A stretch of 64,000 nucleotides of DNA from Alphaproteobacteria bacterium (GTDB lineage Bacteria; Pseudomonadota; Alphaproteobacteria; Bin95): assembly GCA_964291285.2 (NCBI GenBank), contig OZ219789.1, forward strand, positions 64,001 through 128,000. Direction: 5' to 3'. This document shows positions 2,969-29,514 of the stretch, piece after piece (position 1 is the stretch's first letter; every line of letters starts with the position of its first letter). The notes under the pieces are model-generated. The model saw only the letters and a list, made by a program, of their open reading frames with translations, ran no database searches and was not told the origin of the DNA. A program made the translations under genes and the position numbers.

Positions 2969-3002
2969 CGCGCTGCCTCCTTCGCCTTCCGCAACATCCG
3001 GA

Positions 3003-12585: not shown

Positions 12586-12589
12586 CCGC

Positions 12590-13126
12590 TCACCCGAACA
12601 CGAAGGACAGGTGGTTCGACGCCGCGCCCTCGTCGCAGTTGTCGTTCAGCCACGCCAGGTCGCGCGACACCGGCGCGACCGCGCTGACCGTCGCCGGCGC
12701 GGCAGCCGCGACCAGCATCGCCACGATCCCCGAGCCCGAACGCGTGCGCCCCACATAGGCCTCGCCCAGCGCCTTGCAGGTCTCGTCGTCCAGTTCCTCG
12801 AAGGTGATCTGGAACCGCCCGCCATTGCCCCGGATCGACACCGCCGCCCCGAACGGGTGCTCGATCGTCGCAGTGCCACCCGTCCCCTTCCGGGCCCCGT
12901 CCGGAATCCGCCCGAACCCCGCCATCACCGGCACGATGTCGTCGTTGTTCGCCCCGTAGCTCGACTGGCTCGCATAGGTGCTCTCCACGTTCGCGCGCAG
13001 CATGTTCAGCAGGCGGATCGACTCGCCCTCCTTCAGCTTCGAGGTGATGCCGTTGTAGATGGCCACCACCACGACCAGGGCCACCAGGCCCGCGATCACG
13101 CTCAGCAACACTCCGACCGGATTCAT
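12590..13126 (-). CDS. pilS: Type IVb major pilin PilS-like, copy 2
   Basis: Hydrophobic N-helix, HPFGAAV motif, FQITFEEL...C, Cys pair, C-terminal LSFVFG. AGGAGG SD. Confidence 0.8.
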   Translation of the reverse strand: MNPVGVLLSVIAGLVALVVVVAIYNGITSKLKEGESIRLLNMLRANVESTYASQSSYGANNDDIVPVMAGFGRIPDGARKGTGGTATIEHPFGAAVSIRGNGGRFQITFEELDDETCKALGEAYVGRTRSGSGIVAMLVAAAAPATVSAVAPVSRDLAWLNDNCDEGAASNHLSFVFG

Positions 13127-13211
13127 GCCGTCCTCCTCCTTCTCGCCGGGGCCGCGCCGCCGTCCCCGGCAGCCGGCGCCCTGTCCTGAAACCCGTTCAC
13201 CGAAAGCCTTC

Positions 13212-13745
13212 TCACCCGAACACGAAGATCAGGTGGTTCGACGCCCCGCCCTCGTCGCAGTTGGCGTTCAGCCACGCCAGATCGCGCACGATCGGGTCTC
13301 CCCGGTGGACCCTGGTCGGCGCGGCCGCGCGCACCCGCATCCGCACGATCCCCGAGCCCGAACGCGTGCGCCCGACATAGGCCTCGCCCAGCGCCTTGCA
13401 GGTCTCGTCGTCCAGCTCCTCGAAGGTGATCTGGAACCGCCCGCCATTGCCCAGGATCGATACCGCCGCCCCGAACGGGTGCTCGATCGTCGCACTGCCG
13501 CCCGTCCCCTTCCGGGCCCCGTCCGGGATCCGACCGAACCCCGCCATCACCGGCACGAGGTCCGTGTCCGTCCCGTAACTGCTCTGGCTCGCATAGGTGG
13601 CCTCCACATTCGCGCGCAGCATGTTCAGCAGGCGGATCGACTCGCCCTCCTTCAGCTTCGAGGTGATGCCGTTGTAGATGGCCACCACCACGACCAGGGC
13701 CACCAGGCCCGCGATCACGCTCAGCAACACTCCGACCGGGTTCAT
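13212..13745 (-). CDS. pilS: Type IVb major pilin PilS-like, copy 1
   Basis: Near-identical paralog of 12590-13126, directly after pilR. Confidence 0.8.
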   Translation of the reverse strand: MNPVGVLLSVIAGLVALVVVVAIYNGITSKLKEGESIRLLNMLRANVEATYASQSSYGTDTDLVPVMAGFGRIPDGARKGTGGSATIEHPFGAAVSILGNGGRFQITFEELDDETCKALGEAYVGRTRSGSGIVRMRVRAAAPTRVHRGDPIVRDLAWLNANCDEGGASNHLIFVFG

Positions 13746-13757
13746 GCCCCTGCCTCC

Positions 13758-14822
13758 TCAGTAGTTCTGCACCGCGGTCGCGATGTCGAAGCTGACCCAG
13801 AAGATCCACAGCATCTGCGCCGTGCCGAGCGTCATCAGCACCGTGTTCAGCACCATGGTCTTCGCCCGCATCACCGCCTCCGAGCGCTCGATCCAGCGCT
13901 CCACGAAGCCCGCCAGCGTCTCCTCCCAGTCCGCCCGGCCCTCCATCGCCGCCGCCACCGCCACCAGCGACTTGTCCGGGAACTCGTGCCCGCTCGCGGC
14001 CAGCGCCGAACCGAACCCCAGACCCTCGTTCAGCATCAGCCCGCTCACACGCCGCATCCGCGAGCGCACATAGGACGACGCCCCGCGCTCGAACTGCGCG
14101 AACGTCGCCGCGTTCAGGTCCACCCCCACCCGCAGGAACTCCACGCACACGAACAGGAACCCCGAACCCGACAGCATCCGGTAGAGCGAGAACGGCGCGA
14201 ACCGGTCCGCGAACGCCCGCCCCCGGCCCGTCCAGCGCAGCACCACCAGCCGCCCCGCCAGCACCGCCAGCACCAACAGCAGCCCCGCCTCCAGGTCGTG
14301 CGCGTAAAGACCCTCCGAGGCCCAGGCCAGAACCGCCGAGAACGCGTCCCAGCGCGACGGGTCGCTCACCGCGCGCATCGCCGGGAACACCTCGTAGCCC
14401 ATGAACCACGTCATGCCCGCGCAGCCCAGGAAGATCACCAGCGGCCAGAACAGCGCCATCGCAACCGCCCGCACCTGCTTCGCGCGCATCTCCGCCACCC
14501 GCGCCGCCGCCAGGAACAGCGTCTCCGCCCGCGCCCGGCCCAGGCCGTAGAACACCATCGCCTCCGAAGCCGGAACCCAGCGCGACAGCTCCACCGCGAA
14601 CGCGTCGCCGCCCGCGGCCAGCGCCCTGTTCCAGTCCCGCAGCATCTCCACCCGGAACGTCTCGCGCGCCTTCGCACGCATCACCGCCTCGAGCGCCTGC
14701 GGCATCTCCAGCCCGCCGCGCAGCAGGTCGTGCATCAGGTACCAGATGTCCACCCGCGCGCCCGTCCCGGCCGCCAGGAACCGGCGCGCCCGCAACCGCA
14801 ACGCCGCCGCAAGGCGCCTCAT
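13758..14822 (-). CDS. pilR: PilR/GspF-family inner-membrane platform protein
   Basis: LSRWVPASE, PFSLYRMLSGSGFL and ALAASGHEFPD motifs, multiple TMs. Confidence 0.8.
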   Translation of the reverse strand: MRRLAAALRLRARRFLAAGTGARVDIWYLMHDLLRGGLEMPQALEAVMRAKARETFRVEMLRDWNRALAAGGDAFAVELSRWVPASEAMVFYGLGRARAETLFLAAARVAEMRAKQVRAVAMALFWPLVIFLGCAGMTWFMGYEVFPAMRAVSDPSRWDAFSAVLAWASEGLYAHDLEAGLLLVLAVLAGRLVVLRWTGRGRAFADRFAPFSLYRMLSGSGFLFVCVEFLRVGVDLNAATFAQFERGASSYVRSRMRRVSGLMLNEGLGFGSALAASGHEFPDKSLVAVAAAMEGRADWEETLAGFVERWIERSEAVMRAKTMVLNTVLMTLGTAQMLWIFWVSFDIATAVQNY

Positions 14823-16444
14823 GCCGCCGCCTCCGCCGCCACCGCCGCCAGACCCCGCAGCGCCTCGGCCGCCTCCGGGATCTCCGCCCCCTTCAGCAGC
14901 GCGTCCGCCGGGTCCACACGCCCCGCCGCCACCGCCCGCCAGATCCGCCGCCCCAGCGGAACCCCGCCCATGACGTCGACCCAGTGGTTCCACGCCCCGA
15001 TCGCGTCACGCTTCCCCACTAACCGCAGGTAGCCGTCGTCAGGAACGATCCACTCCGCCACCGCCTGCTGGCCCTCGTAGCCCGCCCACGCCGCCAGAGA
15101 GAGCGCCGACTGGCCCGGACGGCGGCATGCGCCGCAGCCCTGCGGGTCGCGGTAGCGCACCCGCCCCCCCAGCACCGCCTCGAGCCCCTCCGGAAGCGTC
15201 CGGCCCTCCGGCAGGCCCGGACGCGAGCAATGGCGGCACAGCAGCGGCACCAGCGTCTGCTTCATCAGCAGGCGGATGTTGCCCCGCTTCGTCACCTCCG
15301 CCTCCGTCACCCCGAGGTCCATCAGCCGGAACAGGATGCCGTTCGCGCTGTGCACGTGGATCGTCGTCCACACCTGGTGGCCCGAGTCGATGAACTGCAG
15401 CACCTGGCGCGCCCCCGAACGGTCGCGGATCTCGCCCACCATCCCCGAAGCCGGGTGAAGCCGCACGAAATGCATCAGGCCCGCCTGGAAGTGCAGGTCG
15501 CGCTCCTCGCCCGCGCCCCCCGTCGGAACCGCGATCTGGACCGCGCCCTCTATGTCGTATTCGACCGGGTCCTCCAGCGTCACGAGGTTCAGACGGCCCC
15601 CGTGCTCGCGCATCTGCAGCGCCAGGTTCGCCGCCAGCGTCGTCGACTTCCCGTCCCCCGTCGTCCCCCCGATGACGATCCCGCCGTATTTCGACATCCG
15701 GATCTCGCGGAACAGGCTCTCCACCTCCTCCGTGAACCCAAGGTCCGCCAGCGTCCGCGCACTCCCGCCATGGTCGCGGTAGAACAGCCGCGCGAACAGG
15801 TGGTGGCCGTCCGGCTCGTCCGGACCCGCCTCGCAGCGCAGCGCCGCGATCTCCTCCGGCAGCGGAAACGCCTCCGAACGACGGATGCTGAACCCCTGGA
15901 AGCTGCCCCGCTGCAGCGAGGTCTGCCGCGACCCCTCGTCCTTCACGTAGAACAGGAACCCGTAGACCCGGTCCGCGTCGCTCGTCGTCAGAGCCTCGCC
16001 CAGCGCCAGCTTGCGGTCGTTCACGATCGCGAACACCCGGCACCCGTCCGCGCCCTTCTCGAACACCACATCGGAAGCCCGCGCCCGCGCCGCCTCCGTG
16101 AAGATCCCCGCAACGCTCTCCACGATCGCCGGGTCGACCTCCGGACCCTCCGGACCCGAACCGTGGCCGCGCCACACCGCCGCCACCTCCTGAAGCGACG
16201 CCGCCTCCTCGCGCAACGGACCCCGAACCGCCCCCGAACGCTGCAACTCGACCAGAAGCGCCCGCGCCTCCTCGTCGTTCGCATAGCCCCGCGCGAACAT
16301 CACCCGCCCGTCCGACCACACCGCGCAGCGCTCCCGGAACCGCGCGTCCATCCGCCCCCAGCGCACCAGACCCGACGGCAGGACCTCCGGCGCCGGCTCC
16401 CGGAACAGCGCACGATGCCACAGCGGACGGCGACCGGCCGTCAC
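14819..16444 (-). CDS. pilQ: PilQ/GspE-family pilus assembly ATPase
   Basis: Walker A GTTGDGKSTT, TLEDPVEY, VGEIRD, GHQVWTTIH, CxxC...CxxC zinc motif. Confidence 0.88.
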   Translation of the reverse strand: MTAGRRPLWHRALFREPAPEVLPSGLVRWGRMDARFRERCAVWSDGRVMFARGYANDEEARALLVELQRSGAVRGPLREEAASLQEVAAVWRGHGSGPEGPEVDPAIVESVAGIFTEAARARASDVVFEKGADGCRVFAIVNDRKLALGEALTTSDADRVYGFLFYVKDEGSRQTSLQRGSFQGFSIRRSEAFPLPEEIAALRCEAGPDEPDGHHLFARLFYRDHGGSARTLADLGFTEEVESLFREIRMSKYGGIVIGGTTGDGKSTTLAANLALQMREHGGRLNLVTLEDPVEYDIEGAVQIAVPTGGAGEERDLHFQAGLMHFVRLHPASGMVGEIRDRSGARQVLQFIDSGHQVWTTIHVHSANGILFRLMDLGVTEAEVTKRGNIRLLMKQTLVPLLCRHCSRPGLPEGRTLPEGLEAVLGGRVRYRDPQGCGACRRPGQSALSLAAWAGYEGQQAVAEWIVPDDGYLRLVGKRDAIGAWNHWVDVMGGVPLGRRIWRAVAAGRVDPADALLKGAEIPEAAEALRGLAAVAAEAAA

Positions 16445-17799
16445 CGCGGGGCCCTCGACCGCCAGGGGAGCCGGTCGGCCCGCCAGCCCGTCACGCGCAC
16501 CCCCGGAGGACGCGCCTCGACCGCAACCACCGCAACCCCGCCCGGAAGACTGTCGCCCGCCTCCACGCGCCACACCTTCTCGCCGTCCGTCACCGCCGCG
16601 CGCAGCGCTGCGCCCGATCCCGTCACCGCAAACCAGCCATAGTCCGGGGGCGGCTCCGGAGCCGGCGCCGTCCCGGCCTCCTCCGCACCGTCCGCCTCCT
16701 TGCGCGCCAGTTCCGCACGCGAGGCCTCCAGCATCGCCTCATGCGCCGCGCGCACCCGCGCGTCCGCCTCGCGGCGCATCGTCTCCCGACGCAGCGCCTC
16801 GTCAGCACGCGCCGACGCCGACGCCCGCAGCGCCGCCGCAAGCTCCCGGTCCGAAGCCACGATCTCCGCCAGAAGCGCCTGGCGGTCCCGGCACAGCGCC
16901 AGGATCTCGCGCTCCAGACCCAGCGCCTCGCTGAACTCCCCCTCCTCCACCGCGGCCGACAGCATCCGCGCGATCGCCGACCGCGGACACTCGAACACAC
17001 GCAGGATCGCCGGCTCATGCGACCCGGCGGCAGCGGAAGAGGCCGGGGCGGCGGCGGGAAAGACGGACCGCCGCCCCGGCGCGCCGGCGGACAACGGAAC
17101 GGCCGCGTTGTCCGAAGCCGCCGGCGTCCCGCGATCGACACCCGCGCCCGGGGAAGCGGCGGACGGCCCGGGGCCGGAAAGGGAGGGCGGGGTTGCCGGG
17201 GCCGGTGACGACGGCGAAGGCGGCAGCGGCGGAAGCGCGTCCCCCGTCCCCTCCGGCAACGCCGACGCCGGTGACAGCAGCAACGCCCCCGACAGCAGGC
17301 CCGCAAGCAGGGGCAGGGCCCGCGGACGCGCCCGGACACCCGCCGGAGACTTGACGAAAACCCGCCCCGCGGGACAGGATGAGCCCATGATGTCGTCCTT
17401 CGACACCCTCGCCGCCGCCGAAGCGCTCCAGGACGCCGGCGCCAAGCCCGAACTCGCCAAGGCCATGGCCGCCCAGCTCAAGGCCGCGGCGAAAGCCGGC
17501 GAACCCGTCACGAGACCCGAACTCGACGCCGCTCTCGGCGCCCTCAAGGCCGAACTGCTCGAACGAATCGCCGCGACCGACCAGCGGATCACATCCGTCG
17601 AGAAGAACCTGATCGAGCGCATAGCCGAGACGGAACGCCGGCTGATGGACCGGACGGCCGCCCTCGTCTGGCGGCTGTTCGGCGCCATGGTCGCGCTCGC
17701 CGGCATCACCATCGCGGTGCTCGAATACCTGCGCACACCGGCCGGATAGTCCCCGGCGGCCCCGGCAGCCGCAACCGGCCGGAAAATGCCGGCAGACAT
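16441..17799 (-). CDS. PilP-like protein whose 5' region carries a 399-bp in-frame insertion (alternative start 17388)
   Basis: C-terminal beta domain (VTGSGAALRA...VEAGDSLPGGVAVVAV), coiled coil, position before pilQ. GGAG-N5-ATG at 17799. Confidence 0.6.
   Translation of the reverse strand: MSAGIFRPVAAAGAAGDYPAGVRRYSSTAMVMPASATMAPNSRQTRAAVRSISRRSVSAMRSIRFFSTDVIRWSVAAIRSSSSALRAPRAASSSGLVTGSPAFAAALSWAAMALASSGLAPASWSASAAARVSKDDIMGSSCPAGRVFVKSPAGVRARPRALPLLAGLLSGALLLSPASALPEGTGDALPPLPPSPSSPAPATPPSLSGPGPSAASPGAGVDRGTPAASDNAAVPLSAGAPGRRSVFPAAAPASSAAAGSHEPAILRVFECPRSAIARMLSAAVEEGEFSEALGLEREILALCRDRQALLAEIVASDRELAAALRASASARADEALRRETMRREADARVRAAHEAMLEASRAELARKEADGAEEAGTAPAPEPPPDYGWFAVTGSGAALRAAVTDGEKVWRVEAGDSLPGGVAVVAVEARPPGVRVTGWRADRLPWRSRAPR
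17351..17380 (+). promoter_or_regulatory. Putative sigma70 promoter for a leaderless transcript
   Basis: TTGACG-N18-CAGGAT followed by 6 nt and then ATG 17387. Confidence 0.45.
17387..17749 (+). CDS. DUF1640/CCDC90-like coiled-coil protein with C-terminal TM
   Basis: FDTLAAAEALQDAG...A.A motif, VTRPEL, coiled coil, terminal hydrophobic helix. Confidence 0.75.
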   Translation: MMSSFDTLAAAEALQDAGAKPELAKAMAAQLKAAAKAGEPVTRPELDAALGALKAELLERIAATDQRITSVEKNLIERIAETERRLMDRTAALVWRLFGAMVALAGITIAVLEYLRTPAG

Positions 17800-17871: not shown

Positions 17872-19131
17872 TCAGTACCGGTCCCGTGTGAACCGCGTCC
17901 ACACCGTCGGCTTTATCTCGCGCCGGATATCGAGATCGGCGGCCAGTTCGCGCCAGCCGATGCTGCGCGGCCCCGCCGGATCGTCCCGGACCGTCATCTC
18001 CAGGCGGCCCCGCGTCCAGCGCCAGGTTCCGTCGAAATGAGGGCCTGACACCAGGGTCCCCGCCTCGTCCACCACCGAGAACTTCCCCTCGGGATGGAAC
18101 ACGAAGCGCCTGTCCGCATACGCCTCGCCCATGAACGCCAGCGAACGCGGATAGGGACGCGCGATGAAGTGGTCCGTCAGCTGGAACGCCGGATGGCGGT
18201 GGCCCGTCGGCAGATACGGAAACGGATAGCCGACCGGATAGCGGAACCGGACCCTCGGCCCGTCATGGATCTCGATCCACTCGCCCGCCTCGTCCGCCGT
18301 GCGCACGATGTCCCAGTAGCCGTCCGTCATGTTCCAGTGCCCGATCCGCCAGAGCTCCTCCCGGTCCCCGGCGCGCACATAGGTGAGGCCGATGCGCTTG
18401 TAGGTCATCAGCACATTGCCTTCCTGCGCCTCGAGGAAGGCCTCGACCTCCGCCTTCGTCGTCGTCGGCCTGCCGCCCGAAGCGCCCAGGCCCGTGCGGC
18501 CGGGCGACGTCAACCGCCAACCCGGGAAGTGCCGGACCGGCGCGTCCGGGTCCTGGCGGCGCAGCTCGTCCATCTTCAGCGAGGTCTGCTTCTCGTTGAC
18601 CCGGATATGCGCCGGGACCAGGTCCGGACAGGCGTCTGCCAGGGCGCGCGGCCAGCTGTCCTGGATATGGCCCGGATTGGTGAGGACAGCGCCGCCCTGC
18701 CCGTTGACTTCGGTCGCGAGCGTGCCGGTCTCCGGATCGTAGAAATGGGATGCATACAGCCGCTTCTGCGGGTCGATCTGCCACGCGACTTCGCCGCCGT
18801 TTCCCGCCATATGTGTTGACCAGCGGGTCGTGTCGTTGCCCAGCCATTGGAACCTGCCGCCCGGGCGGCGGTGCGCGACGCACTCGTAGGCCGTCCCGTC
18901 GGCGCCGAAGACCACCCCCTGGACGACATTGCGGAACCGCCCGGTCCCCTCGACCACCTTCACCCTGTCCGCGAGCAGCCGGTTGTAGAAGTCGGCACTG
19001 TAGGGCGTATGGTTGATATAGACCTTGCTGTCGAGCTTGGCCGACTGCCCGTGCGCCGTGCAGGAGGCCAGCGCCGCGCCCGCAAGCGCCAGCGCCAGCA
19101 GTCTCCCTGCCGTGAGGTTCGACGGCTTCAT
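17872..19131 (-). CDS. Hypothetical lipoprotein (419 aa)
   Basis: MKPSNLTAGRLLALALAGAALAS-C lipobox, ATGA overlap with the desaturase stop, aromatic/beta-rich body. Confidence 0.75.
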   Translation of the reverse strand: MKPSNLTAGRLLALALAGAALASCTAHGQSAKLDSKVYINHTPYSADFYNRLLADRVKVVEGTGRFRNVVQGVVFGADGTAYECVAHRRPGGRFQWLGNDTTRWSTHMAGNGGEVAWQIDPQKRLYASHFYDPETGTLATEVNGQGGAVLTNPGHIQDSWPRALADACPDLVPAHIRVNEKQTSLKMDELRRQDPDAPVRHFPGWRLTSPGRTGLGASGGRPTTTKAEVEAFLEAQEGNVLMTYKRIGLTYVRAGDREELWRIGHWNMTDGYWDIVRTADEAGEWIEIHDGPRVRFRYPVGYPFPYLPTGHRHPAFQLTDHFIARPYPRSLAFMGEAYADRRFVFHPEGKFSVVDEAGTLVSGPHFDGTWRWTRGRLEMTVRDDPAGPRSIGWRELAADLDIRREIKPTVWTRFTRDRY

Positions 19132-19958
19132 GTCACTGTCTCCCTTCCGTCTCGCGATGGAGTGCGCCGGGCCCGGATGCGGGCCCCGCAAGAGGCCAGT
19201 CCGATCACGAGGCCCGCCATGTCGAGCGTCGGGTGGAACACCGCCCGGCCCGGCGCGGCGTGATGGTTGTTGTGCCAGCCCTCGCCCCAGGTGAGCAGTG
19301 CGACCGCCGGGTTGTTGCGGCTGTCGTCGCCCGTCCGGTGCGGCTGCGCCCCCCAGCGGTGGCAGGCCATCGTCACCAGCCCGCCCGCCCAGAGCGTCGC
19401 CGCCACCGGGACCGCCCAGCCGAAGACCGCCAGACGCCAGTCCAGCACCGCCAGCAGCACAGGCCAGCCGAGCGCCAGCGGCAGGTAGTGCCGGTGCAGC
19501 CACAGGCCGAACCGGTCGCCGCGCAGCTCGCGCCGGAACGCCGCCCTGTCCGCCGGCGCGCCGTAGCTCCCGACCAGCAGCGCCCGCCAGCCGAGCCGGC
19601 CGGCCGGATGCGGGTCGCCCGCCCGGTCGGCATGGGCGTGATGGCGCCGGTGCGTCACCGCCCATGCGGGTCCGGTCCCGAAGCAGCCCATCACTCCCAG
19701 CAGGTGGAACATCACCACCGCCCGGCGCGGCGCCGCGAAACTCCGGTGCGCGAAGTAGCGGTGGAACCCGATCGACAGCCCGACGCAGCCGAAGAGGAAA
19801 TAGCCGGACAGCGCGAGCGCCCACCAGGCGAGACCCGCTTCGGCGAACGCCAGCGCCCACAGCGCGACCGCGCCGGTGACGATCTGGACCGCGCCGAAGA
19901 ACATCATCGGCGCACCCGCCCTCCGGAACAGGTCCGTTCCCGCCGCCGGCGCGCTCAC
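19128..19958 (-). CDS. Membrane fatty-acid (delta-9 acyl-CoA-type) desaturase
   Basis: Three His boxes: HRYFAH, HRRHH, GEGWHNNHH. Start at GTG 19958 (overlap) or ATG 19907. Confidence 0.9.
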   Translation of the reverse strand: MSAPAAGTDLFRRAGAPMMFFGAVQIVTGAVALWALAFAEAGLAWWALALSGYFLFGCVGLSIGFHRYFAHRSFAAPRRAVVMFHLLGVMGCFGTGPAWAVTHRRHHAHADRAGDPHPAGRLGWRALLVGSYGAPADRAAFRRELRGDRFGLWLHRHYLPLALGWPVLLAVLDWRLAVFGWAVPVAATLWAGGLVTMACHRWGAQPHRTGDDSRNNPAVALLTWGEGWHNNHHAAPGRAVFHPTLDMAGLVIGLASCGARIRARRTPSRDGRETVT

Positions 19959-20470
19959 AGCGCGAGCTCGTAGTTGCCGCCCGTCAGCCGGAAGCCGAGG
20001 CGCTTCAACAGCCTGTCGGTCCGCGCGATGTCCACGCCGGAGGCGACATTGACATGCAGGCGGACCGCGCCGCGTTCCCCGGCCCACCGCCGGCAGGCGT
20101 GCAGCAGCTTGATCGCCGCCAGCGACCCCCGATGCTCCGGCAGCACGTAGAAGGCGAGGATCGAGGCGCCGGGCGCGGACGAGTACCAGTGAGGCCCGAC
20201 AGCCGCTGACAGCATGCCGACCGTGCGCTCGCCGCGCTCGGCCTGCACCAGGCAATACCTGCCAGGCTTCGCGAGGCGCTCGACGACGCCCCGCCTGACA
20301 AGTTCCCCATCGAAGGGGAGCGCCTTGTCGCCCATCTCCTCATACGCGCGGCGGGCCAGGCTCACCCGCGCGGCGATATCCTCTTCGGACCGCGAGAACC
20401 GGACGGTCACGCTGCCGGGCCGGGCGTCTGCCGGGCGGGGCGCAGCGGCAACTGCCGGGGCCGCGCTCAT
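19955..20470 (-). CDS. GNAT-family acyltransferase
   Basis: FYVLPEHRGSLAAIKLL (motif A-like), RWAGERGA, LLKRLGF. Overlaps both neighbours. Confidence 0.85.
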   Translation of the reverse strand: MSAAPAVAAAPRPADARPGSVTVRFSRSEEDIAARVSLARRAYEEMGDKALPFDGELVRRGVVERLAKPGRYCLVQAERGERTVGMLSAAVGPHWYSSAPGASILAFYVLPEHRGSLAAIKLLHACRRWAGERGAVRLHVNVASGVDIARTDRLLKRLGFRLTGGNYELAL

Positions 20471-22314
20471 TCCCTGCGCTCCCCGACCCTGAGCGAGACG
20501 TCCCAAAACGCCCTCGGGCCATCCTTGCCGACATATTGGCCCTCGCCGAACACGGTGTTGCCGGCGACGCTTCGCACGACGCCGTCGCTCGTCAGCGCGA
20601 TGGACCGGATGCCGGCCTCGTCGAGGCTGCGCAACTCGCCCGGATCGCTCTCGCCGTCCCGGTCGAGGTCCTGCCAGACCCGGAACAGGGCCCACTCCGC
20701 ATCCTCGGGGTCCAACTGCCCGTCGCCGTCGGTGTCGAAATGGCGGAGGCCCTCGAGGTCCGTGCGCGCGCCCGGCACATAGGAGACGAAGCTCAACTCG
20801 TCATGCGCCGCGATCCGCCCGTCGCCGTCCTTGTCGTAGGCCAGGAAGCCGTCATCGGCGGCGGCCCAGGCCATGCGGGTGCGATAGCCATCGCCGTTGA
20901 TGTCGTAGAACGCGGTCGAGTCCTCGAGCGCCACCAGCTCCACCCCGTCCCCGTCCAGGTCCAGCACGATCGGCTTGGCGCCCCCGCCACCACCATTGTG
21001 GCCGCCATTGTTGGCGCTGTCGCCCTTGCCGCTGGAGCCGCAGCAGCCCACGCTCGGATCCGTGTCGTCGTCGTCGTCTCCGGCCTCGACCCCGTCATTG
21101 TCACCATCATGTCCTCCCGGGCTCTCATATTCGGGGCCGGGCAGGATGGGATCGGTCGGCGGCGGCTGGATGGGCGTCGGCGTCCTGGGCCCGACCGGAG
21201 GCGGATCGGTCGGCCGGGGAGGCGCGCCCGGATCGGGCGTTACCGGATCGGGACGCCGCGGTGGGTCCTGCGGCGGAGGCGGAGGAGGCTGGCAGTTGTC
21301 CACGTTCCGCACCCACCGCCGGGCCCCGACCAGGCGCCATGTCCGCACCACCTCCGCGCCCGGACGGACCTGGAAGTCCCGATACTGCGTGTCCTGCTCG
21401 TAATGCGAGGTGCAGCCGCCCGACCACCCCGAGGGGCAGGAGCAGGAGCCCGTGGTGCGCTGCACCGGCCCCGCATACAGCCGGATCACCGGGTCCGGGA
21501 GCGGGGCCGGGGCCGGCGCCTGCGCATACACATGCGGGCAGAGGCCGCCGGCATGGCGCCACGGGCCGCATTGCGCCTGCGCGCCGAGACCCGCCCGGCG
21601 GTCGCAGTCGCGCGGCCAGAGATGCGCCGCGTCCGGCGCCGTCGCCGCAAGGTCCCGGCCCCGCGCATCGCCCGCCCCGCGAATGTCCGTCGCCTGGATC
21701 GGAACACGACGCGACTCGCGGAAGGTCTCCGCCGCCGAACCCGGACAGGCCACCGTCCGGAACTCCGTCTCCCAGCGGAATCCCGTCACCGTGCGCGCCG
21801 GATCGGCCACCGCCCCCACAAGCCCGACACGATCCTCCCCCAGCGAGGGAACCGACATGCAGGCCGGCAGCGACGCGTCGGCGCGCCCGAGCGCCCCCGC
21901 CGCAATGCGCGTGTTCGCCAGGATCACATGCAGCCCCGCCCGGCCGCCCCGCACCGGCGCCACCTGAACCTCGCGATGGCCCCGGCCCACGCCCTTCAGC
22001 TCGTCGCTGGCCGCATAGACCGCCAGCACCCCGCCGCAATAGCGCGCCGTCAGGCCCCGCTCCGTCCAGGACCCGAGCCACCAGGCGCCGGAGGGCGGGT
22101 CCGAGGCGCCGTCCCATTCGCTCCGCCAGAGCCGGGCCGCGTCCGTCACGCGGATGCGCTCCCCGACACTCGCGAAGGCGGTCCGGATCGCCGCCGCATG
22201 CGCCAGCGCCTCCTGGCGCCGCGTCCGGTCCGGGTCGCCCGTCTGCGCCACGGCGCCAGGCGCGATCGCGGCGAGGGCCAACGCCAGCGCCGCTGCGGTT
22301 CCCGCCTGTCTCAT
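20467..22314 (-). CDS. Secreted Cys/Pro-rich adhesin-like protein with C-terminal FrpC self-processing-module-like Ca2+-binding domain
   Basis: Signal peptide AVA-Q, Cys-rich repeats, Pro-rich and acidic/Gly linker, then KPIVLDLDGDGVE...DDGFLAYDKDGDG...FDTDGDGQLD...RVWQDLDRDGESDPGELRSLDEAGIRSIAL. Confidence 0.8.
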   Translation of the reverse strand: MRQAGTAAALALALAAIAPGAVAQTGDPDRTRRQEALAHAAAIRTAFASVGERIRVTDAARLWRSEWDGASDPPSGAWWLGSWTERGLTARYCGGVLAVYAASDELKGVGRGHREVQVAPVRGGRAGLHVILANTRIAAGALGRADASLPACMSVPSLGEDRVGLVGAVADPARTVTGFRWETEFRTVACPGSAAETFRESRRVPIQATDIRGAGDARGRDLAATAPDAAHLWPRDCDRRAGLGAQAQCGPWRHAGGLCPHVYAQAPAPAPLPDPVIRLYAGPVQRTTGSCSCPSGWSGGCTSHYEQDTQYRDFQVRPGAEVVRTWRLVGARRWVRNVDNCQPPPPPPQDPPRRPDPVTPDPGAPPRPTDPPPVGPRTPTPIQPPPTDPILPGPEYESPGGHDGDNDGVEAGDDDDDTDPSVGCCGSSGKGDSANNGGHNGGGGGAKPIVLDLDGDGVELVALEDSTAFYDINGDGYRTRMAWAAADDGFLAYDKDGDGRIAAHDELSFVSYVPGARTDLEGLRHFDTDGDGQLDPEDAEWALFRVWQDLDRDGESDPGELRSLDEAGIRSIALTSDGVVRSVAGNTVFGEGQYVGKDGPRAFWDVSLRVGERRE

Positions 22315-23591
22315 CCCGCACTCCCCGCCGCGCCGTCCACCGGCAGGCCCGTCAGCGCCGTGAACTCGCTCTGAAGCATCCGGAACGGGCGAGCCCGCCG
22401 GCAGGCGAATACCCAGCCCCCCTCCCGGCTCCACGCCGCGGACACCACCTCCAGGCCCTCGACCGCCGTCAGCATCGCGACCGCCTCGCGCAGCGGGCGC
22501 ACGGTCCGCAACTCCACCTCGACCTCCGCTCCCCACTGCCCGTAGCCGATAGCGAACCCCCGCAGCCCCAGCGCCCTGTCCAGGCGACGGCGGAACGCGG
22601 CTGGCTCCGGCCAGGGCGCGGCCTCCGGGTCGTGGCGCGCCAGCACCGCCGGCAGCGGGCTGAACGCCGCCGCCGTTCCCGTGTTATCCAGAAGGGCGTT
22701 GCGCCAGTCTCCCAGCATGTCCTGCGCCAGAGGCACATGCACGCGCGGGTCGAGGCCCTCGCGCAGGCCCCAGTGCACCTCCAGCACCGCCTGCCCGGAC
22801 AGGCCGCCCGGCGACAGGCCGGACCGCGCCTGCACGAAGCGCGGATGGCACGCCGCCCCCTGCCGCTCCCACCCCGACATCGTGACCCGGTGCGCCTCCA
22901 GCGCCGCCCGGCAGTGCCGCAGGAACGCCCCGCTCCGCACCACCGCGTCGACCATCGGCGGTTCCTCCGGCGGCGCCTTCTTCAGATGGACGAACACCAG
23001 TATGTCGTCCCGATGGTTCCAGGCCGGCCAGGCCCCGCCCCCGGCCAGCACCAGCAGCGCCGCCGCGATGCCCGCGCGCCAGGTCAGGCGCACCTTCGGC
23101 GCTTCGACCATGACCGGCAGGCCCGCCGCCGCACCCGCAAGCGCCCCGCTCTCCACAACCGCCCCGGCCCCGAACAGCTCCGCAAGGCCCGGCGTCGCGA
23201 TCACTGCCGCGTCCTGGCCGCCGGCGCTGCCCAGCGCCCGGTGCGCCTGGTCCGCCGAGCGGTAGACGCTCTCCCCGCCCGGCAGGATGCGCCCGCCCGC
23301 GCTCCGCACGACACCGACACGGTTGCCGCCGTCCTCCTCCACGAAGGCCGCCCAGGCGGCAGGCGCCCCCGCGCCGCCGGATGCCAGCACCGCCCGCAGC
23401 GCCCCGGCAAGCGGCGGCAGGCCGCCCGGCGCCTCCGCCGCCCCCAGAAACCCCGTCTGCCCGTCAAGCTCCACCATCCAGGCATGGCCGCGCTCGCGCG
23501 CCGCCCGCGCCGCACGGCCACGGGACAGCACATCCCGCTCCCAGTCGAGACCGGCCGCAAACCGCCGCCCGCCCACCGCCAGCACGCTCAT
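22311..23591 (-). CDS. pilO: PilO-like pilus accessory protein
   Basis: N-terminal GRRFAAGLDWE motif, central TM, directly after the secretin. Confidence 0.7.
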   Translation of the reverse strand: MSVLAVGGRRFAAGLDWERDVLSRGRAARAARERGHAWMVELDGQTGFLGAAEAPGGLPPLAGALRAVLASGGAGAPAAWAAFVEEDGGNRVGVVRSAGGRILPGGESVYRSADQAHRALGSAGGQDAAVIATPGLAELFGAGAVVESGALAGAAAGLPVMVEAPKVRLTWRAGIAAALLVLAGGGAWPAWNHRDDILVFVHLKKAPPEEPPMVDAVVRSGAFLRHCRAALEAHRVTMSGWERQGAACHPRFVQARSGLSPGGLSGQAVLEVHWGLREGLDPRVHVPLAQDMLGDWRNALLDNTGTAAAFSPLPAVLARHDPEAAPWPEPAAFRRRLDRALGLRGFAIGYGQWGAEVEVELRTVRPLREAVAMLTAVEGLEVVSAAWSREGGWVFACRRARPFRMLQSEFTALTGLPVDGAAGSAG

Positions 23592-25201
23592 CCGCCCGCC
23601 TCCCGGTCCGCGCCCGCCGGTCCTGCACCGCCGCCCGCAGCCGCGACCGGAGCCGGGCCGAACCCCGCCCGCTCCGATATCCCCAGCGGCGCCCCGATCT
23701 CCGCCGTCACCAGAAGCGCCGTCTCCACACGCGCCAGGTCCGCCTTCCGGCCGCCCTCCGGGAACGGCACGTCCTCATGGACCGTCCCCGACCGGGTGCC
23801 CGTCGACGAGCGGTCCCGGAAGCCCGTCAGCAGCAGCGTCTCGCCCCGCGCGATGCGCTGCGTCGCCACGATCGCGCGCCGCCCGCCCGCAGGAAGCTGG
23901 ATCGCGTTGCCCGCAGAGCCGAAGGACGTGAACGCCGGACGGTCCTGGATCGTCGCCGTGATCCGCGCCAGGACCTCGTCATGCCCCACGACCCGCGCCA
24001 CGAAACTCAGCCCGAACCCCGACGACACCGTCCCCGGCGTCAGCTTGTACGACCGCACCCCGTCCTTGACCTCCGTGGCGACCTCCTTGAGGTAGGCCTG
24101 GTCGAACAGGTCGTAGAACTGCGCCGGGCGCCCGTTCAGCGTCGGCACGTCCACCGACAGCAGGCGCGAGGTCGTGCCCACCTTGCGGAGCGCCTTTACC
24201 GTCGCATTCAGCGTCTTCGTTCCGGCGGTCACCGGCTTCACTACCGAAATCGCGCCGCCCTGGAACCCGACCTGCAGGTTCGACCCGAACGCCTCCGGCA
24301 GCAGCCCCGTCAGACCCACCTCGTAGTCCGAGCCCCTGTCGAACCGCACCGAGTAGAGATGCACGCTCAGCGTCACCGGGCGCAGCACATGCCGGTTCAC
24401 ATGCTCCAGCCAGGACCGCACACGGTCCACCGCCCGCGGCAGGCCGGTCACCGTCACCGTCGCGGCCGCCGCCGAGATCGACACCCGGCCTTCGGAACCC
24501 GCGGCAGCCCCGGCCTGCGCCCCGATCTCCGACCAGGGCTCGTAGCTCATCTCCGAGGAGATCGACTGCTCCGAACTCCCCGAGGTCGCCTCGCCGCCGC
24601 TGCCCGAGGTCGTCGTTGTCACCGACCAGGTCTGGCGCCCCACCAGCGCATGCACCCCGAACACCCGCGTCTCGGAGCGCACCACCTCGACCAGCTCCGC
24701 CTCGCCGTCATACTGCCACCGGTAGCCCGCGCACTCCGTCCACGCGTCCAGCAGCCGGTCCAGCGGACCTGCCCACACGCCGCCCTCGCCGGCCAGTTCG
24801 TCCTCCCAGGAGGCCAGCCAGGCCTCGCACGCGCCGCCCGTCGGCGCCGGCTCGTTGTCCCTGTGGGCGGCTTCCCCCCATACGGCCCCGGTCAGCCGCA
24901 CCCCGATGCCGGTCGCTTCGGATATGCGGCGCGCCAGGACCTCGTCCCCCGGACCGTCGCCGAGCGTCACCACGATCCCGGTCTCCGACCTCAGATCGGC
25001 CGGAAGAAGGGAACGCTCCGGCGCAACCGCCGTCAGCGCAAGATACGGGTCCTTCGATTGCGTGAGGGATCGGAAACCCGGCCGCTCCGGACCCGGAGAC
25101 CCGAGCGAATCCAGCCGATCCTCTACCTCCGATGCCGCCCGGGCGACCTCCTCATGGTCAAGCCAGCCGCAGCCCGGCAGCGCAATGGCCGCCGCCAGCA
25201 A
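23588..25201 (-). CDS. pilN: PilN/BfpB-type lipoprotein secretin
   Basis: Lipobox LPGC, VTVTGLPRAV, PVTLSVHLYSV, TLNGRPAQ, LTPGTVSSG, GETLLLTGF. The true start may lie slightly upstream. Confidence 0.85.
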   Translation of the reverse strand: MLAAAIALPGCGWLDHEEVARAASEVEDRLDSLGSPGPERPGFRSLTQSKDPYLALTAVAPERSLLPADLRSETGIVVTLGDGPGDEVLARRISEATGIGVRLTGAVWGEAAHRDNEPAPTGGACEAWLASWEDELAGEGGVWAGPLDRLLDAWTECAGYRWQYDGEAELVEVVRSETRVFGVHALVGRQTWSVTTTTSGSGGEATSGSSEQSISSEMSYEPWSEIGAQAGAAAGSEGRVSISAAAATVTVTGLPRAVDRVRSWLEHVNRHVLRPVTLSVHLYSVRFDRGSDYEVGLTGLLPEAFGSNLQVGFQGGAISVVKPVTAGTKTLNATVKALRKVGTTSRLLSVDVPTLNGRPAQFYDLFDQAYLKEVATEVKDGVRSYKLTPGTVSSGFGLSFVARVVGHDEVLARITATIQDRPAFTSFGSAGNAIQLPAGGRRAIVATQRIARGETLLLTGFRDRSSTGTRSGTVHEDVPFPEGGRKADLARVETALLVTAEIGAPLGISERAGFGPAPVAAAGGGAGPAGADREAGG

Positions 25202-26345: not shown

Positions 26346-26804
26346 TCACGGGCTCCCATCCGCCCAGCGGCTCATGACCGTGCGCTTCTCGACGCCGTAG
26401 CCGAGCCCTTCGTAGAAGCGGCGCACCGCCTCGTTTTCCTCGCGGATCATCAGCATGACCTTGGGCGCGCCGGCCCTGGCGAGCCAGGCTTCGGCATGGC
26501 GCATCAACCGTTCACCCAGACCCTGCGAGCGGTGTTCCTGTGCAACGGCGAGGTAGTAGACCCAGCCCCGATGGCCTTCATATCCGGCCATGACGCTGCC
26601 CGCGATCGCGCCGTCGCCGCCGGAGACCGCAACGAAGATGTCGGACGAAGCGTTGGCGCACGCGCTTTCGATATCGCGACACGGGTCGTTCCAGGGCCGC
26701 ACCAGCCCGCAGACGCGCCAGAGTTTCGCAACGCCGTCCTCGTCCCCGTCGCGGATCGGGCGGATAGCGAACCCGTCCCGGCCTCCCTCTTCGCCGCCTC
26801 GCAT
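26346..26804 (-). CDS. GNAT acetyltransferase, YpeA-like
   Basis: LVRPWNDP, MAGYEGHRGWVYYLAV and FYEGLGY motifs. Confidence 0.88.
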   Translation of the reverse strand: MRGGEEGGRDGFAIRPIRDGDEDGVAKLWRVCGLVRPWNDPCRDIESACANASSDIFVAVSGGDGAIAGSVMAGYEGHRGWVYYLAVAQEHRSQGLGERLMRHAEAWLARAGAPKVMLMIREENEAVRRFYEGLGYGVEKRTVMSRWADGSP

Positions 26805-26924
26805 CCCGCACCTTCGCTCGCGCCCGTTCTGCCGCGATAGTAGGACAGATGCCGCCCTCTGGCGCGCGGGCTTCGTTCGCGGCATCATCCGGCCCTTCCC
26901 CATCCCTGCCCGGAGGTCGGTCCC

Positions 26925-28145
26925 ATGGCTCGGCGCGGCATGAGTTTCGGCGTCTTCCTCGCTCCCTTCCACGCGCTCGGCGAAAACCCGACCGTCGCCA
27001 TGAGCCGGGACATGGAGCTGATCGAATGGCTCGACCATCTGGGCTATGACGAGGCCTGGATCGGCGAGCACCATTCCGCCGGTTGGGAGATCATCGCAGC
27101 GCCCGAGATCTTCATCGGCGCCGCGCTGGAGCGCACGAAGCACATCAGGCTCGGCTCCGGCGTGACCTCCCTTCCCTACCACCACCCGATGCTGGTGGCG
27201 CAGCGCTTCGTGCAGCTCGACCATATGAGCCGCGGGCGGACCATGCTCGGCTGCGGGCCGGGCGCGCTGGTGACCGACGCCTACATGATGGGCATCAAGC
27301 CGACCGACCAGCGCCGGCGGATGATCGAGTCGCTGGACGCCATCGTGGCGCTGCTGGAATGCGGCGAGCCGGTGACGATGGAGACCGACTGGTTCACGCT
27401 CCGGGAAGCGCGGCTGCATCTGGCGCCCTGGACCGAGGGGCGCTTCCCGATCGCCGTCGCCTCCACCATCACCCCCTTCGGCATGATGGCCGCCGGGCGC
27501 CACGGCATCGGCGTGCTCTCCATCGGGGCCGGCATTCCGGGCGGGCCGGAAATGCTGGCGAAGCAGTGGCAGATCGCCGAGGAGGAGGCCGCGAAGCACG
27601 GCAAGACGATGGACCGCAGGGACTGGCGCGTGGTCGTCAACATGCACCTCGCGGAGGACGACGAGGAGGCGCTGCGCCAGGTGCATGCCGGCGAGCGGCT
27701 CGAAACCGTGACCTATTTCGAGGAAACGCTCGGCCGCCCGCCCGGCCGCGCCGACGACCCCGTCCGCGAGGGCGTGAAGATGGGCACGACGCTGATCGGT
27801 TCGCCGGAGACCGCCATCAAGGGCATCGAATACCTGCTGGAGCTCTCCAAGGGCGGCTTTGGCGGCATCCTCTTCCGCGCGAACGAATGGGCGAACCGCG
27901 AGGACACGATGAAGAGCTACGAGCTCTTCGCGCGCTACGTGGCGCCCCGCTTCCAGGGCTCTCTGGACATGCTCCACGGCTCCAACGCCTTCGTGCGCGA
28001 GAACCGGTTGCGGGTGCTGGAGGGCAATGTCGAGGCGGTCAGGCGCGCCTTCACCGACACCGGCCGCGAAGTCCCCGCCGGCTTCGAGGACCGCACGCTC
28101 GGCGCCGGCGACCTGCCGAAGGAGGACGACGCGGCGGCGGAGTAG
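26925..28145 (+). CDS. LLM-class flavin-dependent monooxygenase
   Basis: FGVFLAPFH, GYDEAWIGEHHSAGWE, IRLGSGVTSLPYHHP. Start at 26925 or 26940. Confidence 0.9.
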   Translation: MARRGMSFGVFLAPFHALGENPTVAMSRDMELIEWLDHLGYDEAWIGEHHSAGWEIIAAPEIFIGAALERTKHIRLGSGVTSLPYHHPMLVAQRFVQLDHMSRGRTMLGCGPGALVTDAYMMGIKPTDQRRRMIESLDAIVALLECGEPVTMETDWFTLREARLHLAPWTEGRFPIAVASTITPFGMMAAGRHGIGVLSIGAGIPGGPEMLAKQWQIAEEEAAKHGKTMDRRDWRVVVNMHLAEDDEEALRQVHAGERLETVTYFEETLGRPPGRADDPVREGVKMGTTLIGSPETAIKGIEYLLELSKGGFGGILFRANEWANREDTMKSYELFARYVAPRFQGSLDMLHGSNAFVRENRLRVLEGNVEAVRRAFTDTGREVPAGFEDRTLGAGDLPKEDDAAAE

Positions 28146-28154
28146 CGCAGCTCC

Positions 28155-29012
28155 ATGCCCTTCGCGCAGATCGAAGGCGGGGACATCCACTACGAGCAAC
28201 GCGGCACCGGGCCGGCGCTGGCGATGCTGCTGCCGCAGAGCGGCGGGCCGGTCGGCGTCGGCCCGTTCCTCGACCGGCTGGCGGCGCGCTTCCGGGTCAT
28301 CCGCTACGACCAGCGCAGTACCGGCCGGAGCGCACCCGTGACCGCGCCCGAGGGCATGACCATGGCGGGCCGCGCGGCGGAGCTTGCCGGGCTGCTCGAT
28401 GCGCTCGGGATCGAAAGGACGCACCTGTTCTGCCACTCCACCGGCTGCGGCATCGGCCTCGCATTCGCCGCTTCCCGCCCGGACCGGGTCGCAGGGCTGG
28501 TGCTGGCCAATCCGTGGAGCCACGGCGACGCCCATCTGGCGACCATGCAGCGCCTGCGCGTCGCCGCCGCGCGGGCGCTCGACCCCTACCGTTACGCCTG
28601 GTTCAACGCCAGCCTGCTGTTCCCGCCCGACCATCGCCGCGCACACGCCGAAGCCTTCGAGCGGCTCGCGAGGAATGCCGCGCCTCAGGACGCCGGCGGG
28701 ATCGAGGCCCGTCTGGAGGCGATCCTGGCCTTCGACGCCCGCCCGCTGGCGCCCGGCCTGGCCTGCCCGACCCTTGTAGCGACGGCGGCCGACGACCAGC
28801 TGATGCCGCCCTGGTTCGGCGAGAAGCTGGCGGCGCTGATTCCCGGCGCGGCCCATCTGGCGCTGGAAGGCGGCGGCCACATGCTGCCCGAGACGCGCGC
28901 CGATGCGCTGGCCGAAGCGGTCGCGGCGTTTCTCGGCGCGGCCGCAGCGCCCCGGCAGGATCAGATGCCGGAAAGCTCGAACCCGTCTTCCACCCGGACG
29001 ACGGTGAACTGA
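28155..29012 (+). CDS. Alpha/beta hydrolase (RutD-like)
   Basis: YDQRSTGRS, CHSTG nucleophile elbow, DDQL, GGHM. The 3' end overlaps the convergent lipoprotein gene. Confidence 0.8.
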   Translation: MPFAQIEGGDIHYEQRGTGPALAMLLPQSGGPVGVGPFLDRLAARFRVIRYDQRSTGRSAPVTAPEGMTMAGRAAELAGLLDALGIERTHLFCHSTGCGIGLAFAASRPDRVAGLVLANPWSHGDAHLATMQRLRVAAARALDPYRYAWFNASLLFPPDHRRAHAEAFERLARNAAPQDAGGIEARLEAILAFDARPLAPGLACPTLVATAADDQLMPPWFGEKLAALIPGAAHLALEGGGHMLPETRADALAEAVAAFLGAAAAPRQDQMPESSNPSSTRTTVN

Positions 29013-29482
29013 TTTCCCGTGGAGAAGTTCCGGTAAGTGAACTCGGTCCCGTCGAAGGACACGATCCAGTAAGCGTTCCGGTAGTACGGATCGGCGGGAT
29101 CGGTCTCTATCGGTTTTCCGCTCCACGAACTGGCTTTCGTTATAGTGAAGTAAATCGGCCCGGAGACGCCCCATTCCCCGCGGTGGAACCGCTCCGTATA
29201 TGTCCCGTTTTCCGAGTAAAGCCGAAAGGCCGCGTCGTAGGTGCCATCGACGGACCGGGATATGAGCCACTCCACGCGCCCGCCCGGTTTCGTCGGCTGG
29301 CTTCCGAACCACTTGCCCACCATCGCATTCCAGGTCGCGGTCTCGGAGGCGGTCAATTCGGGCTTGCCGTCCGTAACCGGTATCGAGGACGTGCCCGCCG
29401 GAGCGCAGCCGGACAGGCCCAACAGCGCGAATGCCATGAGGCAGAAGACGCAACCGGCCGTTCTCGCTCCGCGCAGGCGCAT
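28961..29482 (-). CDS. Hypothetical lipoprotein (lipocalin-like beta fold?), copy 2
   Basis: Lipobox LSGC, MVGKWFG motif, paralog of 29656-30177. Confidence 0.75.
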   Translation of the reverse strand: MRLRGARTAGCVFCLMAFALLGLSGCAPAGTSSIPVTDGKPELTASETATWNAMVGKWFGSQPTKPGGRVEWLISRSVDGTYDAAFRLYSENGTYTERFHRGEWGVSGPIYFTITKASSWSGKPIETDPADPYYRNAYWIVSFDGTEFTYRNFSTGNQFTVVRVEDGFELSGI

Positions 29483-29514
29483 GGAACGCCAACTGCCCCA
29501 TCCCGCTTCCCGTT

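Follow-up and report, generated by a model that had tools for sequence, protein, structure and literature searches.

What does a self-processing module do when the residue ahead of its cleavage site is a lysine? Self-processing modules (SPMs) have been regarded as rare 'clip-and-link' devices in which RTX proteins use an Asp-Pro bond, and the NeissLock ligation tool is built on them. The question is raised by a pilus operon on the alphaproteobacterial contig OZ219789.1, of which we analyzed a window of 64,000 nucleotides (forward strand, 64,001-128,000; coordinates given without a locus name are positions within this window). One gene of the operon encodes a 615-amino-acid protein, P0001, whose C-terminal module has Lys-Pro where the SPM of FrpC has Asp-Pro, and the adjacent gene encodes a small GNAT N-acetyltransferase. 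Our comparison assigns the module, on its sequence, to a widespread sub-class in which a flexible linker is followed by Lys-Pro, so that the lysine is not a one-off substitution, and shows that a GNAT gene is tightly linked to this linker-Lys-Pro sub-class in very different host proteins. The two genes and the parts of the protein are as follows.

20470..22314, minus strand: coding sequence of the 615-amino-acid protein P0001, with its ATG at 22312-22314 and a TGA stop at 20467-20469
22246..22314, minus strand: Sec-type signal peptide, residues 1-23 (MRQAGTAAALALALAAIAPGAVA, then Q; predicted cut between …APGAVA and Q), read by eye from the sequence
21280..22245, minus strand: Cys-rich N-terminal domain, residues 24-345, conserved in the alignment of orthologues, no family match
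20977..21279, minus strand: disordered linker, residues 346-446, at first rich in Pro, next acidic and finally rich in Gly (…NGGHNGGGGGA), with a predicted local distance difference test score (pLDDT) below 50
20971..20976, minus strand: K447-P448 (AAG CCG), opposite D414-P415 of FrpC in the PDB sequence alignment
20470..20973, minus strand: SPM-family (PF26745) Ca2+-binding domain, residues 448-615, from sequence, the precomputed PF26745.1 assignment and the structural model
19955..20470, minus strand: GNAT N-acetyltransferase P0257, 171 amino acids (PF00583, E 8.9e-9)

Is the module genuinely related to that of FrpC? It is: with its last 168 residues, the protein belongs to the SPM fold family. 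The last 177 amino acids matched the FrpC SPM in the PDB with an expect value (E) of 2.5e-25 (6sjw_A; query residues 10-164, chain residues 1-161) and its P415A precursor with an E of 9.2e-25 (6sjx_A), in which D-A faces K9-P10 of the query. P448 falls on P415 and K447 on D414 in this alignment, so the initial annotation, which had marked exactly the span from the K447 codon (AAG, 20974-20976) through the stop (20467-20976) as an FrpC-like module with Lys-Pro at the scissile site, was right on both counts. The next-best sequence matches in the PDB were calmodulins (E of 2.4e-7 or higher), and these covered single EF-hand-like loops only. An AlphaFold2 model of the domain, made from 73 sequences, reached a pLDDT of 92.9 and a predicted template-modeling score of 0.89, and a Foldseek search of the PDB with this model returned 6sjx (E 8.1e-15; template-modeling [TM] scores of 0.78 by query and 0.76 by target) and 6sjw (E 2.1e-14; 0.74 and 0.73), after which the next match lay at an E of 0.09. 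The structural alignment that had been suggested at the outset thus places the modeled domain on the FrpC fold, at TM scores of 0.76 to 0.78 and 36% sequence identity. PF26745.1 is precomputed for this protein in the protein database, and the protein atlas names PF26745 'SPM' (Pfam 38.1). Our own Pfam and NCBIfam scans of the 615-amino-acid protein found no significant family, the Pfam release searched being older than PF26745; because that family was absent from it, the scans gave only sub-threshold matches to EF-hand and dockerin families.

The module shares with the SPMs of FrpC and ApxIVA (6SJW, 6SJX, PF26745) the N-terminal proline followed by an (I/L)(V/A)LDLDGDG strand, the DxDxDG loops (five here, starting at residues 452, 471, 494, 527 and 549), a tryptophan pair and the equivalent of D579. 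The pair consists of W483 and W547, which face W451 and W519 of FrpC in the alignment and are 99% conserved in Lys-Pro copies, and FrpC L475 and D579 are retained as L507 and D605. The domain is also strongly acidic, with 38 Asp and Glu against 16 Lys and Arg in 168 residues. Every structural feature of the SPM family that we looked for is present in the module, with Ca2+ binding predicted from the loop motifs.

Could the module then clip and link as FrpC does? Passages of Kuban et al. (PMC7078468) identify D414 as the nucleophile of the FrpC SPM, place D478 and D579 in a fifth Ca2+ site that is transient, describe port residues, among them G477 and G491, as constraining the scissile bond, and call the SPM exclusive to large RTX proteins. 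The protein of the window differs in each of these respects other than D579. It has Lys in place of the nucleophile, and V510, S511 and A516 stand for G477, D478 and G491, as they do in all non-Asp copies. Its middle segment is of a 'SF…GARTDLEGL' type, as opposed to 'ELFGD' in FrpC. The module lies at the C-terminus of a protein with a Sec signal, and this protein has neither RTX repeats (no PF00353 match in the 615 amino acids) nor a type I secretion signal and is paired with a GNAT gene. The Sec signal and the lack of repeats had both been recognized in the initial annotation, and the signal-peptide pattern is kept across a 64-sequence orthologue alignment (A1). According to passages of Scheu et al. 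(PMC7846742), the D414A exchange abolishes both cleavage and ligation by FrpC, and Gly, Asp or Pro directly before Asp-Pro allows minimal FrpC cleavage. Because D414 is replaced by Lys, D414A kills FrpC cleavage and the port is altered, the module of the window lacks what the FrpC chemistry needs. Judged by its sequence, it is outside the clip-and-link functional class, as it has no nucleophilic Asp, differs from FrpC at port residues and is not set in an RTX protein.

A singular replacement of Asp in an otherwise FrpC-like module had at first been implied, and the comparison with homologues does not support this view. A word-indexed search recovered 119 homologues, 77 of which have the proline and the loop motif, and the residue before the proline in these 77 is Lys in 65 and Asp in none; Lys-Pro after a Gly-rich run is a family trait among the motif-bearing homologues. 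On a larger scale, an exhaustive domain search yielded 20,015 cluster representatives with an E of at most 1e-3, of which 910 had an E of at most 1e-30. Many SPM-like proteins are thousands of residues long and carry two to four copies of the domain, often in tandem. From 213 domain-positive proteins that were fetched, we extracted 261 full-length domain copies, a sample biased to the relatives of the query, in which the residue before the proline is Lys 93 times, Ala 44, Pro 39, Ser 21, Thr 14, Leu 13 and Asp 10 times; Arg and Tyr also occur at this place among SPM-like domains. Tabulated in this way, as the initial annotation had advised, lysine is common and no oddity (93 of 261 copies, against 10 with Asp). 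At least four glycines are found within the six residues before Lys-Pro in 68 of the 93 Lys-Pro copies, a run that Ala-Pro and Pro-Pro copies lack.

Two SPM sub-types part cleanly by their middle segment. Copies with the 'E-L-F-G(-D)' segment of FrpC have Asp-Pro in seven of eight cases, whereas those with the 'S-F-V…G-A-R-T-D-L-E-G-L' segment of the query have Lys in 82 of 161 cases and Asp in one. Proteins of unrelated architecture share the Lys-Pro feature, RTX proteins and giant adhesin-like proteins among them. The 3,608-amino-acid RTX protein P0233 has GGG-D-P at residue 1347, before a module of the 'ARTDLEGL' sub-type of the query, so both Asp and Lys occur at this position within the sub-type. 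Since Asp-Pro is rare among the relatives, the port residues are replaced and D414A inactivates FrpC, we therefore consider the module a probable Ca2+-folding module without Asp-anhydride chemistry. Three readings had been put forward initially, a non-cleaving Ca2+ switch, a module with different chemistry and a lysine acceptor for a partner SPM; the first of these fits best, and the second is a minority reading. Neither the Lys-Pro sub-class nor its GNAT is described in the literature that our searches covered, which did not extend to supplementary panels of SPM homologues.

Why does an acetyltransferase gene accompany the module? The GNAT, whose Pfam matches are PF00583 and PF13508 only, belongs to a narrow family (49 clusters). 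Members of this family, at only about 33% GNAT identity, stand beside linker-Lys-Pro modules of unrelated proteins in six or more further genera, with the GNAT gene either before or after the module gene. A tblastn search found the family in few plasmids of cultured bacteria, and we examined six of them. In four of the six, the GNAT gene lies 0.4 to 2.5 kb upstream of, and on the same strand as, a gene that encodes a Gly/Ser-rich linker, Lys-Pro and an SPM-like domain:

Martelella mediterranea pMM593: Hint-containing giant FG-GAP protein, Lys-Pro at residue 556
Cereibacter sphaeroides 2.4.1 pDE: calcium-binding protein, Lys-Pro at residue 251
Roseibium aggregatum: Hint-domain protein adjoining type I secretion genes
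Leisingera sp. M527: linker-Lys-Pro SPM-like gene downstream of the GNAT gene

These plasmids had been found through the GNAT. We also chose 17 plasmid SPM loci blind to their GNAT status and sought a GNAT gene within 6 kb on either side. Both linker-Lys-Pro loci of this sample (Ensifer and Neorhizobium) have a match to the GNAT profile just upstream (E 1e-11 and 1e-12), compared with none of the 15 other loci, which have Asp, Ser, Gly, Thr, Tyr, His, Val, Arg, Ala or Pro before the proline or, in one case, Lys-Pro without a Gly/Ser-rich linker (two of two against none of 15; one-sided exact probability of about 0.007). The Arg-Pro module most similar to the Lys-Pro module of Cereibacter likewise has no GNAT gene nearby. 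Across seven GNAT-linked modules just 21 alignment columns are invariant; Lys-Pro is among them, and its lysine is the sole invariant one. In several plasmid modules linked to the GNAT, the Ca2+ loops are degenerate and the second tryptophan is missing. The initial annotation had named, as one finding that would refute it, that Lys-Pro variants be common, inert Ca2+-binding domains in unrelated contexts: they are indeed common and their contexts are unrelated, but 'inert' does not sit well with a lysine that is invariant and coupled to a GNAT.

Other features of these plasmid loci may be recorded here. A Hint (intein-like) domain is encoded upstream of the linker-Lys-Pro SPM in Martelella (L020, 8253 onwards), Roseibium (L023, 10229-12007) and Ensifer (L030, 4462 onwards), and in Paracoccus (L024, 7514-8884) a Hint-domain protein adjoins the GNAT but an SPM is lacking. 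In Roseibium the gene seems broken, its Lys-Pro junction occurring twice, in two open reading frames (ORFs). The small gene that lies between the GNAT and SPM genes on plasmids has no Pfam match and is conserved only between Leisingera and Phaeobacter.

The association is also found within the pilus loci. We compared 19 related loci, all from metagenome-assembled genomes of uncultured Alphaproteobacteria and several per genome, which mostly have a common gene order; the two genes upstream are kept in 17 of the 19. The N-terminal domain of the protein is the constant part, and what comes after its Gly-rich linker, which itself differs in length and composition among orthologues, is an SPM, a CFI-box-CTERM domain or nothing. 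CFI-box-CTERM (NF041770, E 1e-11 to 1e-13) replaces the SPM in L001 (10001-11524), L006 (9956-11473), P0045, P0056, P0064 and P0067, and starts directly after the Gly-rich linker (…GG-CFLTTAV…). Since paralogues end in SPM, CFI-box-CTERM or a bare linker, the C-terminal module is swappable. The GNAT gene lies directly downstream in nine of nine SPM-bearing loci (the window and eight others) and in none of nine SPM-less loci, a count that leaves out L005 and L016, which are cut by contig ends. Mapped onto an N-domain tree, the combined label of SPM and GNAT needs six changes, at least four of them on well-supported branches.

A further gene follows the GNAT in these loci. In five it encodes a radical SAM protein of about 305 amino acids without a SPASM domain (truncated in L008), whose best NCBIfam matches are TrsS, Tes and MoaA, all far below the cut-offs:

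L002, 12585-13568: radical SAM gene after the GNAT
L003, about 11001-11915: radical SAM gene after the GNAT
L009, 11078-11992: radical SAM gene after the GNAT
L012, 5720-6655: radical SAM gene after the GNAT

In the window, L014 and L015 the gene in this place is of the fatty-acid-desaturase family, and among the SPM-less related loci neither a radical SAM nor a desaturase-family gene is found. The two enzyme types may be oxygen-dependent (desaturase family) and oxygen-independent (radical SAM) alternatives for one step. By its gene content, the spot between the SPM gene and the lipoprotein gene is a variable, lipid-flavored cargo site. L001, a CFI-box locus, has a polyprenyl synthetase and an S-adenosylmethionine-dependent methyltransferase with a cyclopropane-synthase-like match in the place of the GNAT cassette (11355-13494).

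How do these observations fit together? We lean towards one joint explanation, which we regard as somewhat probable: the linker-Lys-Pro SPM is exported, folds on Ca2+ without cleaving itself, and has its lysine modified by the GNAT before export. The protein would pass through the Sec pathway, and the module would then fold on external Ca2+ and remain joined to the Cys-rich N-terminal domain, with no self-cleavage via an aspartic anhydride. It could serve as a Ca2+-dependent folding or anchoring unit in a protein accessory to a type IVB pilus that resembles the R64 pilus and is carried on a conjugative element. The GNAT, which should be cytoplasmic because it has no signal peptide, would most likely acetylate or acylate the invariant lysine before export; in the window, its target would be K447. 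The whole 615-amino-acid protein has just five lysines. Either the donor or the adduct may be tailored by the third enzyme of the cassette, which is of the desaturase family or a radical SAM enzyme and, speculatively, hints at acyl-chain chemistry. A bolder proposal, which we put forward only tentatively, is that the invariant lysine is the acceptor of a dedicated GNAT and that linker-Lys-Pro SPM and GNAT, joined in the pilus loci by the desaturase-family or radical SAM enzyme, form an undescribed protein-lysine modification cassette. Such a cassette may have been grafted onto Sec-exported pilus proteins, Hint-domain giants and type I secretion substrates, and the modification may act as a lipid-like anchor or as a switch of the Ca2+ module.

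Lysine modification of Ca2+-binding secreted proteins has a precedent. According to passages of PMC8339906, RTX protoxins have conserved lysines that are acylated by RtxC enzymes, and one of these enzymes, ApxIC, has a GNAT-like fold. As in the RtxC systems (HlyC, CyaC and ApxIC), an acyltransferase gene of about 170 amino acids adjoins the gene of a Ca2+-binding secreted protein with a conserved lysine, and in our plasmid examples the enzyme comes first and the candidate substrate second, often beside type I secretion genes. Unlike RtxC, the enzyme here is a classical coenzyme A (CoA)-type GNAT (PF00583) outside the RtxC/HlyC family, so that the likeness is one of gene logic only, and the candidate lysine lies at the N-terminal edge of the SPM and not in the acylation region of an RTX toxin. 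If the GNAT does modify the lysine, bacteria would have a second way, next to that of RtxC, of modifying lysines in Ca2+-dependent secreted proteins; if it does not, the module would be an ordinary non-catalytic Ca2+ domain. Most members of the SPM fold in our query-biased sample are not Asp-Pro modules, the family extends to Sec-exported proteins of what are probably conjugative type IVB pili, and one large sub-class, in which the reactive position is fixed as lysine, is linked genetically to an acetyltransferase family of its own.

Several observations weigh against a GNAT that modifies the lysine. A profile search of the PDB with the GNAT placed the CoA-type GNATs 2eui and AAC(6') nearest and returned no RtxC structure. 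Two of the six plasmids (Paracoccus and Phaeobacter LSS9) have a GNAT homologue without an SPM nearby, and a Lys-Pro copy in Rhizobium WYJ-E13 that lacks the Gly/Ser-rich linker has no GNAT gene within 6 kb on either side. The blind sample has only two linker-Lys-Pro loci, and in four of its negatives (L028, L036, L041 and L042) the gene start lies beyond the 6 kb covered on either side. In the pilus loci, all four independent pairs on the N-domain tree agree on the combined SPM and GNAT label, which gives a sign-test p of 0.125, the best attainable with four pairs; moreover, because the two genes are adjacent and a single deletion or insertion shifts both, these loci alone are no proof of a functional link. 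In 5 of the 12 motif-bearing homologues without Lys before the proline, a lysine is found one residue earlier, so its exact position is not absolute. Because the protein is Sec-exported and the GNAT looks cytoplasmic, any modification would have to precede export. Finally, P0074, the one apparent case of a natural SPM-GNAT fusion, was rejected, being an SPM gene that a frameshift carries into the frame of the neighboring GNAT gene. No longer protein that includes a GNAT homologue turned up when such fusions were sought, although this is weak evidence.

The module may instead be a plain Ca2+-dependent folding or spacer domain. Its lysine would then only cap the flexible linker, perhaps pairing with the acidic surface to which the transient fifth Ca2+ binds in FrpC, and the GNAT would be hitch-hiking cargo that acts elsewhere. 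We judge this possible, although doubtful. SPM-like domains with many different residues before the proline (Ala, Pro, Ser, Thr, Leu, Arg, Tyr and others) are abundant and often come as two to four tandem copies, and the high acidity of the domain with its retained D605, the equivalent of D579, would suit such a pairing. The gap between SPM and lipoprotein genes holds varied cargo, as the polyprenyl synthetase and methyltransferase of L001 illustrate, and the nearest solved relatives of the GNAT acetylate small molecules. What this explanation leaves unaccounted for is that the same GNAT family recurs beside linker-Lys-Pro modules in unrelated proteins and in both gene orders, that the lysine is invariant among modules with so few invariant columns in common, and that an Arg-Pro relative lacks the GNAT.

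Self-processing by another chemistry appears improbable to us. Here, Ca2+ folding would strain the Lys-Pro bond, as happens to the scissile bond of FrpC, the lysine ε-amine would attack its own carbonyl and the N-terminal domain would be freed with a C-terminal lactam, the GNAT gating the reaction by acylation. The fold, the first β-strand (PIVLDLDGDG), D605 and both tryptophans are retained, Lys sits at the exact scissile position in most members, and the GGG-D-P of P0233 indicates that Lys and Asp are interchangeable in the sub-type. The port residues, however, are bulkier (G477 to Val, G491 to Ala), and several GNAT-linked plasmid modules combine degenerate Ca2+ loops with the loss of the second tryptophan. 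The one-residue shift of the lysine in five homologues is also better accommodated by a modification site or a linker cap than by strained-bond chemistry. We know of no precedent for Lys-driven self-cleavage of a protein, which adds to our doubt.

It is very improbable that the lysine is there to accept the Asp anhydride from a partner protein with an Asp-Pro SPM: the FrpC anhydride does join lysine ε-amines and K447 is exposed on a flexible linker, but passages of PMC7078468 call that linkage non-specific for lysines, a search of the 64-kb window at E ≤ 10 gave no second SPM beyond three chance-level matches of 12 to 30 residues (E 0.6 to 3.2), none was found in the 19 related loci at E ≤ 1e-3, and the GNAT would be left unexplained and would block such an acceptor.

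What kind of operon carries the cassette? The pilus setting noted in the initial annotation holds, with several of the matches being weak: a PilN-type secretin, an ATPase, a platform protein and type IVb pilins occur together on one strand, the gene order being PilN-family secretin, PilO-position gene, SPM gene, GNAT, desaturase-family gene, lipoprotein, 472-amino-acid gene, T2SSE ATPase, T2SSF platform and two pilins.

23588..25201, minus strand: PilN-family type IVB pilus secretin lipoprotein (TIGR02520, E 2.3e-43; its 148.5 bits are below the curated cut-off, 287.65)
22311..23591, minus strand: 426-amino-acid protein in the PilO position, no family match, kept in 17 of 19 loci
19128..19907, minus strand: short membrane protein of the fatty-acid-desaturase family, 259 amino acids, three His boxes, start codon uncertain (PF00487, E 5e-14)
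17872..19131, minus strand: lipoprotein, 419 amino acids, lipobox LASC, from its sequence, conserved in related loci
within 14819-16573, minus strand: T2SSE ATPase (PF00437, E 5e-41)
13758-14993, minus strand: T2SSF platform (PF00482, E 2.7e-4)
12590-13126 and 13212-13745, minus strand: tandem bundlin/PilS-like pilins of about 177 amino acids each (weak Bundlin/PilS matches, E 1e-4 to 1e-2)

The 426-amino-acid protein is called PilO by position, on what we take to be the pil gene order of R64. The desaturase-family protein matches the DesA family with an E of 1.7e-15, far below the family cut-off. Three ATGA overlaps of start and stop codons, at 22311-22314 (PilO-position and SPM genes), 20467-20470 (SPM and GNAT) and 19128-19131 (desaturase-family and lipoprotein genes), suggest translational coupling through the inserted cassette, that is, across the PilO-position, SPM, GNAT, desaturase-family and lipoprotein genes, and the ATG at 22312-22314 has a GGGAG-like run just 5' of it. 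Two ORFs in this region were set aside: 13123-14409 is in the wrong frame over the real platform and pilin genes and probably spurious, and 15039-16421 is in the wrong frame over the real ATPase gene. In the comparison of loci, tblastn matches to these two ORFs mark position only.

The operon resembles the type IVB (PilL-PilV) thin-pilus operons of R64 and of integrative and conjugative elements in having a PilN secretin, T2SSE, T2SSF and PilS/bundlin-like pilins on one strand, with TraI, SSB and TcpQ-like genes nearby, and differs in the extra Cys-rich secreted protein between the PilO-position and lipoprotein genes; the gene-by-gene likeness to R64 is presumed on our part. The element is probably conjugative, because TraI, SSB, nuclease and two TcpQ-like genes are found further on, along with a second ATPase:

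5920-7353, minus strand: staphylococcal-nuclease-like protein
3875-5050 and 5016-6092, minus strand: two TcpQ-like proteins
3003-4571, minus strand: type IV secretion system TraI domain
2528-3040, minus strand: SSB
1383-2603, minus strand: second T2SSE-type ATPase

The constant N-terminal domain of the SPM protein has ten cysteines, eight of which (C93, C152, C190, C237, C249, C259, C293 and C341) are invariant and two (C291 and C301) nearly invariant in the 64-sequence alignment, and its model has a pLDDT mostly between 75 and 90. A Foldseek search of the PDB with this model gave no match, and the protein atlas held no usable match for the domain. The related locus L017 has an in-frame stop in this domain (10001-10453) and is likely a pseudogene.

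Just past the pilus operon, a 1,089-amino-acid ORF (26346-29615, minus strand) has as its sole recognized part a C-terminal GNAT domain (PF00583, E 5e-16), and a class-III aminotransferase is encoded at 30210-31793.

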